Assembly: GCA_964016885.1 (NCBI GenBank)
Contig: OZ024740.1
Span: 113,460,001-113,524,000 of the forward strand
DNA: 64,000 bases
Direction: 5' to 3'
DNA from: Eledone cirrhosa
Lineage: Eukaryota
Part shown: positions 1,293-63,973 of the stretch, piece after piece
How the letters are laid out: the number at the start of each line of letters is the position of its first letter
Numbering within the stretch: position 1 is the stretch's first letter
Program-made: the position numbers and the translations under genes
Notes under the pieces: model-generated
The model's input: the letters and a program-made list of their open reading frames with translations, nothing else
What the model was told of the DNA's origin: nothing
Database searches by the model: none

Positions 1293-1370
1293 ATTACCTC
1301 ATTACCAGAGATTTCCCGAATGAGGCGAATACGAAAGAAACGTCTTCATTCGTTCGTCAGACGAGGCAAT
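1293..1370 (-). ncRNA. Type I hammerhead ribozyme
   Basis: Minus strand: ttgcctcgt-CTGACGA-(gaatga..tcattc stem II)-GAAA-tctctgg-TA-atgaggtaa; stem I pairs over 9 bp; GUA site. Confidence 0.75.
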
Positions 1371-1545
1371 ATAAAACATGGCTAAATACTTGGAAAGTCT
1401 CATCAAGATAAGCAAAAAAAAAAATTATATAAATATAGACAAATGAATTACAATAGCCATATGAAATATACGAAAGAAACGTCTTCATTCTCGCTCTCTC
1501 TCTCTCTCTCTATATATATATATATATATATATATATATATATAT

Positions 1546-2600
1546 ATAATAAAATAACAGGAGGCTGGAATGGTGTAAATCCTTGAAAAGTTTATTATAC
1601 TATGATCATTTCAATGACCGGGTTCCGTATGAATCCGGTGATATCATAAGGTATTCGAATTCGAAATATAACAAAGGAATATATAAAATCCATCTTCCGA
1701 AAATCAGAGACAGAGAGGAAGACAGACCAACTAGCTGCTTTCACCTCGGTCAATCGCCCTCAATTGATGGCAACTCGGTCTACTAATGACCATCTGGTGA
1801 GGGGGCGAAGGCTTATAATGTACTACCACTTCTCCGTCAGAGAATAAAAAAAAGAAAGAAAAAAAGAAGAAAAGTCAGCGTAAGGGTCACACTACAGTCA
1901 TGCTAGAAGACGCCGCGAAAAATGTTATTCCAAAGAACCCATATTTTTACAAAGGCATATATATGGGTGTCTGTATGGTATAATGTGTGAACAGAAAATT
2001 GGAACGTAAACTTATGTTAAGAGTTATAGGATGAAATTAAATTATTAGAAAATTAATAGAAAATTAAAGGTTTGTGTTGCGAGATTTATTTAATGAAATT
2101 ATATAAAGAGTATTATATGAAAAAGTTTAAGTGTATTATAGGGAATCTCGATAAATTATCAAGGTGGGATATAGAGTAAAGATAAAAGCCTTCGATTGTA
2201 AATCCCAGCCAGCACCTCCTAACCACGTGTTAGCCAGTATCGAGTGGTATCGTCTAGCGAAATAAATGGAAATTAATTTTTCCGAGTATAGAATATCTGT
2301 TCTATCTCTAATGTCATTAGAGATAGAACAGATACTCTATACCATTTCCTGTCAGCATGACTTGGCAAGCTATTTAGAACACTGGTTTAACCGCTTTACT
2401 TCCCTCCGAAGAAGAGATATTATCACGGAAATTAAGGACATTTAAATAAATCTAAGGTAAAAGACTAATTGCCAACAATATCTTTTGCGTTTGCATTCTT
2501 TTTTCTATGTCCATACCTGCATTGTTTTGGCTTTATTATACATATACAAACGTTTATACCTCATTACACAATGCTTCAAGTGAACTATAACCTCCTCCTA
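1546..2600 (-). mobile_element. Non-autonomous PLE-like element, family A (pLTR with degenerate HHR at 1597-1654)
   Basis: Terminal segment shared with 2810-2945, 3038-3190, 8011-8184, 9989-10162 and 63880-64000; 1985-2070 resembles the reverse complement of 9300-9400; flanked by (TA)n. Confidence 0.65.
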
Positions 2601-58812: not shown

Positions 58813-61800
58813 GTGAGTGCAAGTAAAACAAAACATTTAAGATGACATCATCAAGATGAACATCATCATGGTTGTGATGGTGAATATCAGATGATCATCA
58901 TAATCATCGTTAACCTTATCGAAAACAACAACTGAAATAGCAATAATCAAACTAAAAATTCAATAAGAACAATAACATGGCATTCATCTGGTTTATATCA
59001 ATAGTCTTCTGGGAACATTGCAAAAGAAAAAAAATACATATTTGATGCTGCAAATAAAACAAATAACTTATATAAAACATCCAAATAATAATAATAATAA
59101 TAATAATAATAATAATAATAATAATAACAAAATAATAATAATATATATGTATATATACACACACACATATATATATATATATATTTCCTATATACATATA
59201 TATATATATATACACACATACATATATGTATCTATCTATCTATCTATCTATCTATCTCTCTCTCTATCTCTCTCTCTCTATATATATATATATATATATA
59301 CACATATATATATATATACATATATATATATAAACACACATATATATATATGTATATATATATATATATATATATATATATATATATATATATATATATA
59401 TATATATATATATATATATATATATATATATATATACACACACATATATATACATATATATACACACACACACACACACACATACACACACATATATATA
59501 TATATATATATATATATATATATATATAAAATCTATACATAATAAACAAAATCCAAATGTAACAAGGAAAGGACGCACACCAGTATTGTCACCAGCTCCA
59601 CGGAATCGGCTTGACATTTATTCACGATAAGTACTTTCGGTTAAGTCAATACGTTCTACTGATATGGGTAACTTATATAACAGACATTCATATGGCATTT
59701 TTGTTATTTTGTGCGTGCTTGCAGGTCACAGAAGATTAATTCACAGCAAGATATTCTAAGTGAACCATGTTTGGAAATGACTGGCAATGCCATGCTCTAC
59801 ATACATACATGTATACATCGTAGTATATGCGTATATGCGTATATATATATATGTATGCACCCAGTATATGCATATATATATATATATATATATATATATA
59901 TATGCATATATGAAGGAGAGAAGTGGCTGTGTAGTTGTTAGATAAGGTATGCTTAAAAATAAGAAGAGACCAAGAACGGGAGAAGTTATCCCCCATCAGT
60001 TGTCTACTGGGGTTCTCGGATTTATCTACGCATTTATATATATGTATATATTAGTATATATATATATATATATATATATATATATATATATATATATATA
60101 TATATATATATATATATATATATTTATTTATATTATATATATATATATATTTAAATATATGTGTATGCGAGTATGTGTGTGCGTGTGTGAATGTATATAT
60201 ATCTCTCTATATATACACAGTTCAAGAGTAAATTATCTTAAATAGAGAGATGGAGATAGGAGAGGAGAGATTGGTGAAGGTATATATATATATAACTGGA
60301 ATTTGACTACTATTCTGTTATTTTATGTATTAATCCAATGAAGCAATGCTCAGCTGTTCTCTCAAGAAAGAAATATTCCCACCGAGGCGACTACTATTGT
60401 ATTATTTATAGAAGTTAAATATGTTTAGGCGGCAGCATATAAACATCATCTAAAATCAACCCAGATGTATTGATTGGTGAGGAAGTGGGGTCTGTGAAGC
60501 TAAATTGACCCTAACGAAATTGCACGAAATGCTCACGTGAGTAACTCTTCCGAGGGTAGAACATTAACCAATTGATTACAAGTCATTAATTTAACGTTCG
60601 CATAAAAGTGAGCTATGTTAAAAATAAAAATGAAGAATTATCCCCAGCTTTACATATTTTCTCAAGTCCAATACACAAAGAGTTACACAGAGCCAGAAAT
60701 ATTCAGATGAACGTAAACAAGCATATAATTATAAAAGTTCCAATCATCTCACAACAGTTTAAATCAATTTATCGTGCACCGAAATTGTAAAAAACAGCAA
60801 CAACACCGACAACAAAAATAACAGCACACATAGGAAAGGGTTTAATTTATAAAAGCCTTTAACTCTCACTGAAATGTATTTCATTTATCGAACGAATTCA
60901 AACATGACGGCCACATCCAAATGATCATTTTATAAATCTCCGTTATATTTCCATAAATAATAGTCTCTGCACGAATAAGATAGTCAACGTTTTCAGTTTC
61001 TGCTCTTTGTTTTGCCTATTTGTTAGTGTTTTCTCCCTAACACCAAAATGACATGTAATAATTTATTAGAAATATAAAAACCACCAAGCTGAAAAATGTT
61101 TACAGAAAAAAACTCCTGAAAGAATTTCTTTAATAATACACACACATATATATATAAACAGAGAGAGAGAGAGAGAGAGAGAGAGAGAGAGAGAGAGAGA
61201 GAGAGAGAGAGAGAGAGAGAGAGAGAGAGAGAGAGAAAGAGAGAGAGAGAGATTGTTATGCATTTTCACTAATTTACTAGATCCCTTGACGCAAATTATG
61301 CGAGTAGTATAAGGCCACACGGCTCATGTATGATAGTACTACACCACACTCTTAATTCAATTTGACAAACTGTCCGATTGTCTATGAAATATATTTAACT
61401 ACTTCTTTCAGTTCAGGGCTCTGCATACAAATCATTCCAGACACTCGCATGTCTACCATAAACAATGATAACAAATATAACAAGAACAACTGCCATCATC
61501 TCAAACAATATGAAAAGAAAACCAAAAACAAAATTCAATCCCCCAAATAAAAAATTCATGTCGGTGATGATGATGGATACTCTATCCTTCTCGACGATGA
61601 ACATTCAGATTTGGTTTCTTGAACGTCATTCTCGGATATTATCGTATTAGTGTTTGAATATTCCTCAGCCAAGTGTACCCATCATGTTACTTCTCAAGCC
61701 GAATCAGCGTAACAGAGTAGACTGGCCCTTTACAGCTATTATTCATCTAACGAGTTTCCTAGCAGGATACATCTCCGGAGTTTCACTTAAAAGATTTCAA

Positions 61801-63915
61801 TGGATCTGCGGCTATGGTAAAAACACTTGCCTAAGATGCCAGGCTGTGAGTTTGAAGGCAGGATCTCATGATTACGAGGTGAACGTCTTACTCCAAACTG
61901 GCCTGCCGTTGGAAAGATATAGTAGCCGGCTGTTATACAACCAAAGACCAAAGTTAATGCCATGGGAAGCAGGGTGGGGGATGTATATTGTCAGTGAAAT
62001 AGCCATGCATTTCCCAACGGTGGTAGTGCAGTAAGACAATGAATCAAGAAAGCAGAAGCTATCTAAGGTTATGGCCTGTCTTTCAAACTTCTCCAAGTGC
62101 ATTTCTGCTGACATCTATACATCAGAAATGTATTTAAACTACCGAAGGATGTTAAAAGTACCAATTATTATTATTAACAAAAGTAAAATTACAAAAGAAA
62201 TCTATAACAGTAAAAGCGATCCCCCCCCCCCCCAAAAAAAAAAATAGACTGCGTAGTTATGTATATTTTAAATTTTAATTTTGTATTGTTAATTGTAATA
62301 CTATTTGCATGTTTGTTACTGTTGTTGCTGTAATCGTTTATTACAAATATTTCATCATTACAACTACAAAAAGAAAATAATAATAATAATTGAAAAATAT
62401 GCATTGATGACACTAGCGCTTTATAGGAAACATTTACAGAAATGTGGTAATGAATCAATTGAATTCTTTTACTTAAAGCGTTGGGAAATAATACCGAAGA
62501 AATGAAAGAGAATCTTTATGAACGCAATGAACGAAAATAGAATAATTATTACAATATCACTATACATTAACAATCAGATGTATCTAAAAATATACATTGA
62601 ATTCACAAGGAGACAAATATAGTTTAGTTGTGTGTATTCAATCAAATTTACTCAATCACAAAGTAACACTCCAAGAGATTTCTTCGAATGTAATAAAACA
62701 GCGACATATTTAAAGAAATATTCCTCAATTGAAATACAGTTACATGTATTATTACAACACAATTGCTTAGTTATATGAGAGGATGTTTCTTCTCTTCTAA
62801 ATGTAATATCTAAAACTTTTTACCTTCAAAAACGAAAACACATGTATATATGCGGTGGGGGGAATTATTTGTATACACACACACATATATATATATATAT
62901 ATATATATATATGTGTGTGTGTGTGTGTGTGTGTGTGTGTGTGTGTGTATATATATATATATATATATATATATATATATATATATATATATATATATAT
63001 ATATATATATATATGCATACACACACACACACACATATATATATATAAATATGAAATATATATATCCATACATAAAATATTCTTCGGAGTATTAACATCG
63101 AATATGAATCTCAATTGTGTTATCATAACAAGAACATAGACAGTGCAACATTTTGATATGTGAAAAGAACTATATTTTTAAACTCAATTCTATAAAACTA
63201 TATAATCAAATGCCAATTGTTTGGGAACACAGATATTTGATAACATTTAGAATGTATTTGATGAAAGGAGATATTATTTATGAATCCAAACCAATACATA
63301 TTTCAACACACTTTTATAAGGTATGTGGAATTAGAACATAAATAACGAAGTCTTAAAACAATATAAATTCACACTGCCACGGCTTCTGCTAAATTTAAGT
63401 GTATATGTTTTGTTCATGGACGGCATGATATGTCGTGGAGTGAAATATTTAAATGTAACATAGAACATGTGACCTTCGCTCACTGCGGAGTTTAAACAGT
63501 TAAATATAAAGAAATATATCCAATTATTCACTGAATCACATATAAGCTATGCTGGTGCAATCACGTATTCATATCAGAAATTGAATTTTTATAGAACTTA
63601 AACTTATCCGCAGTCGTTGTAATATCACTCATTCTAACCATTCTTTTCTTTTCTCTGTATGCAATCTTAAATACTTATATACACACACAAAGACACACAC
63701 ACATACATATTATATATATAGATATATATATATATATATATATATATATATATATACAGAGAGAGAGAGAGAGAGAGAGAGAGAGAAAGAGAGAGAGAGA
63801 GAAAGATATATCAGGATTAAACCAACAGAGTACGCGATACATGAGATAGTAGTGCGATTATAGTAGAGAGCCAGGGCCTGATGGCTGGACTGGTGTAATT
63901 CCTTAAAGGTTTATT

Positions 63916-63973
63916 ATACTATGAACATTTCAATGACCGTGTTCAGTATGAATCCGGTGACATCATCAGGTAT
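63916..63973 (-). ncRNA. Family A hammerhead ribozyme (pLTR 63880-64000)
   Basis: atac-CTGATGA-..-GAAA-tgttca-TA-gtat. Confidence 0.75.

Follow-up and report, generated by a model that had tools for sequence, protein, structure and literature searches.

Type-I hammerhead motifs in an Eledone cirrhosa genome window are typical of a ribozyme-laden genome and likely belong to Penelope-like elements

Introduction

A 64,000-nucleotide stretch of the Eledone cirrhosa genome (assembly GCA_964016885.1, contig OZ024740.1, positions 113,460,001 to 113,524,000; G000:C1:113460001-113524000), hereafter the window, raises the question of why one locus should carry so many hammerhead ribozyme motifs, and why the stem III of so many of them reads as a palindrome. 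The initial annotation had counted about 30 hammerheads from more than 10 families, considered their local density extreme, and proposed selection across a whole community of elements for cleavage as dimers, with possible effects on any host transcript that crosses the region. The dimer model itself was rightly described there as known: palindromic helix III and dimer cleavage have been published for the hammerheads of Penelope elements (PMC4209133, PMC3088659, and PMC6765202, which cites Lunse et al.). Here, we report that the window motifs are real sequence features of a known kind, the type-I hammerhead, and that the window is typical of a ribozyme-laden genome. The motifs likely lie in the 3' terminal repeats of many families of Penelope-like elements (PLEs), and most are predicted to be latent, with a short self-complementary stem III that would form only through pairing of two ribozymes.

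Results

Number and integrity of the window motifs

The window (33% GC, in a genome of 3.0 Gb) is rich in microsatellites, which swamped the repeat search. Motifs were sought with a scored type-I descriptor comprising the core CUGAnGA (or U3 with A8 or G8), GAAA, the A15.1-U16.1 pair, UH, stem I, and a folded stem II, with a cut-off score of at least 5; stem III contributes no term to the score, so that palindromes were not favoured. This descriptor, which replaced a strict first version that gave only 4 matches and missed motifs whose stem II has a mismatch or an additional base at its foot, returned 13 matches in the window, compared with a mean of 0.2 (maximum, 1) in 20 block-wise dinucleotide shuffles, and the motif excess over chance thus stands.

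Damaged copies added by homology search brought the census to 40 rows. Four seeds (17147, 20064, 53103, and 61668) that had an exact CTGAnGA but neither a second copy nor a fold were dropped, and the addition of a locus at 35970 gave 37 type-I hammerhead loci in about 17 families, decayed copies included. Both canonical core halves are kept in 23 of the 37, the remaining 14 deviating, and 16 combine both halves with a stem I of at least 4 bp. Hence, the number of motifs and families claimed initially holds for loci in any state of decay and is too generous for working ribozymes. The positions then quoted each mark, to within 3 nucleotides (nt), the end of a hammerhead-like motif, and the stem III strings were verified as ATGATCAT at 2854, ATGTACAT at 3093, ATGCGCAT at 34532, ATATATAT at 39954, ACCGGT at 46825, ACGCGT at 19443, ACTAATTAGT at 55309, and ACGT at 35093. 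An Rfam scan of the window gave zero matches at the gathering score; of the 293 matches of an E-value search, the 150 listed included no hammerhead family, only microRNA matches driven by microsatellites. Hammerhead variants with a long stem II fall outside the Rfam models, and this failure therefore lowers Rfam-family membership only.

Density across the genome

Sampling drew on 18 contigs, which supplied 99 spaced 10-kb stretches, and on 200 kb of flanks; one additional stretch, a selected satellite, was excluded. The 99 stretches held 115 matches, or one per 8.6 kb, compared with 3 after one shuffle, and the size-weighted estimate for the whole genome is 343,000 motifs (bootstrap, 262,000-432,000). 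An exact count over the genome agrees: full-core matches of one stem III class number 104,234 genome-wide (204 for the reversed-pattern control), and since this class makes up 39 of the 115 sample matches, it scales to about 307,000. Family-specific patterns occur 38,398 times for F1, 19,976 times for a family with A in place of U at core position 4 (U4A, discussed below), and 6,924 times for family A, with controls of 0; cores are conserved across tens of thousands of copies.

Against this background, the local density ceases to be extreme. The window lies 1.7-fold above the genome mean, at which 7.4 matches would be expected per 64 kb (P = 0.097 for at least 13), and its two flanks contain 60-kb runs with as many as 14 and 13 matches, on a par with it. 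Matches per locus correlate with (TA)n content (rho 0.54, p 6e-9), the median distance from a motif to (TA)4 is 145 nt vs 401 nt, and (TA)n makes up 6.4% of the window vs 4.5%; the window's excess fits this content. Density is thus a property of the whole genome, and we regard the local density as a by-product of insertion, not of selection on the region. Family A clusters locally (1597-10053 and 63916), with 4 pattern matches vs 0.15 expected from the 6,924, the copies being 75-94% alike.

Published counts, made with descriptors that differ from the present one, are 2,000-9,000 hammerheads per genome (PMC4209133), with about 5,000 motifs given for mussel and as many as 120,000 for axolotl (PMC7229834). 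Literature searches, with subscription papers, figures, and supplements outside their reach, found no prior report of comparable counts. What is new here is the scale of the hammerhead load, and the U4A family.

The possibility of a host transcript crossing the region was considered over 264 kb. Intact matches are evenly split between strands (20 + and 20 -), and a Pfam comparison of 136 of the 273 non-repeated frames of at least 55 amino acids, which short exons would escape, yielded no host exon; its matches were to Helitron (2), reverse transcriptase (RT), and one weak RING. The Helitron helicase fragments lie about 90 kb upstream of the window (L011:7564-9631).

Self-complementarity of stem III

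Palindromic stem III is enriched, although it is not a rule. Perfect palindromes make up 64 of the 115 genome-sample matches, with 16 more pairing through G-U, and 15 of the 46 distinct strings, where 2.2 would be expected; the majority stem III is palindromic in 14 of 18 multi-locus families. In the window itself, only 6 of the 13 scored matches are perfect, and the examples given initially represent the palindromic subset. By computed energies, short palindromes (6-8 nt) are unfavourable as monomer hairpins (+4.7 to +6 kcal/mol) and favourable as homoduplexes (-3 to -10.5). Outside the 18 families stand U4A and F27, the first and third commonest families by homology (44 and 31 copies), whose long, imperfect stem III is stable in the monomer (-1.9 and -1.4, computed). 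The stem III ATATATAT is common to three families and ACTAGT to two, which makes pairing across families possible in principle.

Among the first 100 listed copies of family A, the centres, counted by eye, are 83 AT, 15 TT, 1 TG, and 1 AC, the TT form, TGTTCA, recurring far above other mismatches. Of the 38,398 F1 matches, the 100 that were listed have pair-compatible centres throughout (TA, TG, or CG; by eye). The F4 stem III is AGAACT or AGGACT. The statement that family A keeps its palindrome between TGATCA and TGTACA was borne out: TGTACA marks a true subfamily (27 copies in 30 loci chosen for their likeness to it), whose stems I and II carry partner changes as well. Covariation across family A gave 93.6% of cells paired, compared with 27-35% in slid controls, with both-side changes in stems I, II, and III; the rows had been filtered beforehand by their outer stem III bases, and one subfamily split dominates them. 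Together, these patterns support constraint on a self-complementary stem III at the lineage level, and its retention from a shared ancestor fits them as well as convergence does. The proposal of selection for dimer cleavage across a whole community fails, given the imperfect, monomer-capable U4A and F27 and the TGTTCA copies of family A.

Penelope-like carriers

Three families lie 0.9-1.5 kb behind same-strand PLE endonuclease open reading frames (ORFs), namely F3 (Neptune-type), F7, and U4A (both Hydra-type). The F3 hammerhead is present in all three repeats of a near-complete element at 40739-46938 (Table 1), whose translation has a C-x4-C-x2-C linker and two cysteines that fall between the endonuclease's GIY and YIG motifs, as in the CX2-5CxxC linker and endonuclease CCHH of Neptune, a clade call made by motifs. 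Across 119 loci, coverage of this element is 11-17 at the ribozyme end vs 0-2 across the ORF. Contigs of runs X1 and X4 cover the element over 41300-45500, but their depth cannot rank its parts and was left unused. A second Neptune-type RT piece, inverted, lies at 1-1095; it is 97% identical to 43695-44605 and terminates in a fold-back that surrounds a (TA)n tract.

For U4A, a 645-aa RT-endonuclease frame in locus L221, bearing Hydra marks, has the motif on either side, and 8 of the 9 U4A pairs examined have pieces of a PLE ORF upstream of the motif in sense orientation. Translations of L221, L225, and L227 contain an RWK-like motif with R as third residue, DKT, and CxCX5C, and lack CCHH, which again places them in the Hydra clade by motifs. 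Placement in pseudo-long terminal repeats (pLTRs), that is, repeats flanking an RT and GIY-YIG ORF, was thus found for F3, for U4A (L221), and, as regards the endonuclease part, for F7. For the other families (A, F1, F5, F8, F9, F14, F16, F27, and singles), such placement is presumed from layout; among them, 2-3 copies each of F1, F16, and F27 have an ORF match 1.4-1.9 kb upstream. Adjacent same-family pairs less than 3 kb apart are 53 divergent, 9 convergent, and 22 direct, and inverted pairs together with 5' truncation explain the hammerhead numbers.

Variant cores

Core positions 3 and 8 covary in the genome sample (C3-G8 in 94 of 115, U3-A8 in 19), and two families depart from the canonical core. 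The U4A family, matched by an exact 29-mer pattern, has A4 in 100 of 100 listed copies, with the remaining core bases and three helices present. A putative U4 sister subfamily was rejected: of 837 U4 look-alikes, the 8 checked were all fold-back junctions. CUGA-turn mutants other than the C-G swap are reported to have low activity (PMC9901934), and literature searches that did not extend to figures, supplements, or subscription papers found no natural U4A core. The family at 26871, in the fold-back at 26424-26884 behind a Hydra-type endonuclease, reads CTGAAGA with GATA instead of GAAA; GAAA is absent from 8 of 8 aligned copies, and this family has perhaps spread without a working core.

A further family, at 29460-29550, has full-length sisters (L192-L215) that, by eye in the alignment, appear to read in S-G-C order, with one compensatory stem I change (L036). 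On C6 near 38.92 Mb (L163:3475-10000), a 58-bp satellite of more than 110 units at 97% identity is built from the 3' portion of the A2 hammerhead; lacking CUGAUGA, it was rejected as a ribozyme array.

Other features of the window

Coordinates are collected in Table 1. A dispersed repeat of about 190 bp, the size of a short interspersed element, is present in six copies (14150-14305, 19650-19852, 21125-21317, 48886-49062, 52569-52765, and 58397-58594). A frame at 28503-28833 (+), without a Pfam match, presumably resembles the restriction-like endonuclease of R2/NeSL-type retroelements.

Table 1. Hammerhead motifs and carrier elements, in window coordinates
Feature	Position	Strand	Details
F14 hammerhead	1293-1370	-	stem I 10 bp; stem III ATCTCTGGT, not palindromic
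Family A1 hammerhead	2854-2911	-	stem III ATGATCAT
Family A1 sisters	1597-1654; 8067-8124; 10053 (+)		G5U; ATGAACAT; GAAA lost, respectively
Family A copy	63916-63973	-	non-palindromic stem III ATGTTCAT, variant recurring genome-wide
Subfamily A2 hammerhead	3096-3151	-	stem III ATGTACAT; diverged, stem I 3 bp
Retrozyme-like head-to-head array	3984-5618	.	units of ~315 bp; five F9 hammerheads, U3-A8 core
F9 hammerheads of this array			3 intact, 2 with G at position 3; stem III ACAAGACTTGT, centre unpaired
U4A-core hammerhead-like motif (CAGAAGA)	18605-18655	+	17-nt hairpin stem III; 3' end of Hydra-type PLE
U4A sisters	17753-17803; 22969	-; -	22969, GAAA lost
Hammerhead	18853-18897	-	stem III ACATTGT, odd centre
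Hammerhead-like copy	19443-19485	-	G5A core change; stem III ACGCGT; single copy in sample
Broken Hydra-type PLE RT and endonuclease	24003-25656	+	fold-back 26424-26884 downstream
F27 hammerhead	27098-27148	-	stem III 16 nt, imperfect palindrome
Putative S-G-C-order (non-circularly permuted) hammerhead family, 5'-truncated copy	29460-29550	+	absent from the initial annotation
5'-truncated Hydra-type PLE	32867-34644	+	endonuclease ORF 33004-33474
F7 hammerheads of this PLE	34531-34601; 32910-32980	+; -	32910-32980 in inverted copy; stem III ATGCGCAT
F16 minimal hammerhead	35093-35128	+	stem III ACGT
F1 inverted pair	35585-35757		intact 35585-35649 (-, ATATGTAT); truncated 35709 (+)
Third F1 copy	29374	-	GAAA lost
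Decayed hammerhead	35917-35975	-	G5U core; ATATGTTT
Hammerhead	39124-39191	-	stem III ACCTTTGGT, centre 3 nt
F8 hammerhead	39954-40009	+	stem III ATATATAT
Near-complete Neptune-type PLE	40739-46938	+	self-BLAST arms 96% identical
Parts of the Neptune-type PLE	40739-41421; 41696-41928; 46319-46938		inverted 5'-truncated copy; upstream direct repeat; 3' repeat
PLE ORF in pieces (frameshifts, stop)	41923-45378	+	RT (RVT_1, Pfam E 4.3e-6), linker, GIY-YIG endonuclease
F3 hammerhead	46825-46862	+	U3-A8 core; stem III ACCGGT; predicted cut after 46858
F3 sisters	40877-40914 (-); 41748 (+); 22282 and 57599 (+)		intact; A9U; decayed, respectively
Old inverted pair	49155-49606		hammerheads 49422-49471 (+, G8A, ACATTAGTGT) and 49335 (-, decayed)
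Direct tandem, 522-nt step	54735-55832	-	F5 hammerheads 54790-54863 and 55311-55386; stem III ACTAATTAGT; short stem I
F4-like motif	56871-56908	+	stem III AGAACT, centre mismatched; stem I 2 bp

Discussion

The explanation we favour, and consider likely, is that the type-I motifs lie in the 3' terminal repeats of many PLE families and are for the most part latent. Each PLE insertion would leave one to three hammerhead copies: reverse transcription would start just 3' of the ribozyme and usually stop early, often with an inverted second copy, and with such early stops the ribozyme end would be the part that is copied. In the tandem transcript of a source element, two same-strand copies could then pair through stem III, probably with the help of a PLE protein, and cleave behind the UH site. 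A copy that is solo or inverted has no same-strand partner in a passing transcript, would cut poorly, and would decay neutrally, which is how a genome could carry about 300,000 of them; selection would act on the source elements only. Published work on Penelope hammerheads reports an inactive monomer, a weak dimer, and many families per genome (PMC4209133).

Several observations weigh against this explanation. The covariation of family A amounts to about one subfamily split, and pairs with both-side change number 4 vs 3.7 in shuffles. A same-strand PLE ORF within 2 kb upstream accompanies only 20 of 297 census copies, compared with 21, 18, and 12 in three control placements, an enrichment test that is itself uninformative and whose Neptune endonuclease seed was in the wrong frame; further, no PLE ORF was tied to the family A motif in the 7 pairs examined. 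Most families are hence assigned to PLEs by architecture only. Finally, families with AGAACT, TGTTCA, a U4A core, or no GAAA were amplified too, and dimer cleavage is therefore not needed by all.

The rival to be taken most seriously is that the ribozymes are passengers, with cleavage largely dispensable for PLE copying and palindromy a weakly maintained ancestral trait, the motif persisting as a structure for protein binding or priming, or as a pLTR parasite. We give this a substantial chance, short of even. In a study of a PLE hammerhead that cut only with protein, ribozyme mutants still inserted in vitro, and no RNA-seq ends fell at the cut site (PMC11167929), results that keep the passenger role a serious rival; parasitism of PLEs by hammerheads was raised in PMC8557442, and 1 of 9 dimers tested elsewhere was cut (bioRxiv 10.64898/2026.07.22.740005). 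The fixed A4 of the U4A family, with all 8 checked look-alikes resolving into junctions, the low activity of CUGA-turn mutants, and the lack of GAAA at 26871 point the same way. They are countered by the full catalytic core of most families, with its C3-G8/U3-A8 covariation, and by the pair-compatible centres of all listed F1 copies. The strong form of the initial proposal, a selected hotspot in which a community has converged on dimer-dependent cleavage acting on a host transcript, could draw on the 1.7-fold excess of the window, the clustering of family A, and the stem III strings shared between families, ATATATAT and ACTAGT, but it appears very improbable to us: the excess has a P of about 0.1, is equalled in the flanks, and fits the (TA)n content, over half of the copies are damaged, strands are balanced over 264 kb, and the 136 of 273 frames compared with Pfam yielded no host exon. 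Chance matching in AT-rich repetitive DNA, to which the lack of an Rfam match might be taken to point, is next to impossible to reconcile with shuffle and reversed-pattern controls near zero, with cores conserved over tens of thousands of copies, and with paired changes in each stem of family A.

A bolder proposition, which we consider rather doubtful, is that this is the densest animal hammerhead load yet described, at about one intact motif per 9 kb and 300,000 or more in all, and that each successful family carries a safety catch. If so, the catch would be either the dependence of stem III on a partner or, for the Hydra-type family of greatest abundance, a fixed U4A core set on a monomer-capable fold. 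Different families with the same palindrome (ATATATAT occurs in three) would then be able to pair in long transcripts, and intact same-strand neighbours with the same palindrome would be depleted from introns.

The design and the dimer idea being already known, the window is ordinary for this genome. Its hundreds of thousands of hammerhead copies, spread over dozens of families, nevertheless make the genome a natural mutational library of the core and stem III variants that ever amplified, one that also allows intact sense copies in introns to be weighed for exclusion. This bears on whether PLE hammerheads need to cut at all, a question posed in PMC8557442 and PMC11167929. The U4A family represents either a working core variant or a PLE that spread to over 20,000 copies with its ribozyme crippled.

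Comparison with known systems

The motifs resemble the minimal, short-helix-III hammerheads of metazoan PLEs (Cervera and de la Pena 2014, PMC4209133). Both sets share the type-I fold, a palindromic helix III, an additional base ahead of stem II, and U3-A8 variants; both have many families per genome and mainly solo copies, lie in pLTRs, and form opposite-strand pairs at distances of 100-700 bp. The present motifs differ in number (about 300,000 here vs 2,000-9,000 per genome there, under different descriptors), in stem III palindromes that reach 10 nt, and in the fixed U4A core, which was not seen in the text consulted there, figures and supplements aside. The axolotl motifs, in a 28-Gb genome, are about 25 times sparser than the present estimate, again under different descriptors (PMC7229834).

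Among the PLE clades of Craig et al. 2021 (PMC8557442), the F3 element matches Neptune in its C-x4-C-x2-C linker and the cysteines inside GIY-YIG, while the U4A family matches Hydra in its RW-basic motif, DKT, CxCx5C, CxxC, and CxH, the F7 and 25063 endonucleases being similar. Shared with the PLEs of that study are the partial tandem with an inverted 5' copy and (TA)n targeting, and the layout at 40739-46938 matches its Fig 2 legend. Canonical hammerheads are described there as universal in Hydra; in contrast, one very abundant Hydra-type family here is U4A and another lacks GAAA.

The array at 3984-5618 resembles the non-LTR (long terminal repeat) retrozymes of metazoans (PMC7229834; bioRxiv 10.64898/2026.07.22.740005), defined by tandem units of 150-450 bp that each carry a type-I hammerhead, in its units of about 315 bp, its 5 motifs (3 intact), and the lack of an ORF; unlike them, it is arranged head to head. 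Lastly, the family at 29460-29550 appears to agree with the type-SGC hammerheads (Eckert et al. 2023, PMC10085705) in its S-G-C order and in the 6-bp stems I and III of full copies, and departs from them in its 5'-truncated window copy with a 3-bp stem III, in a stem II split by an insert, and in its occurrence in an animal genome.

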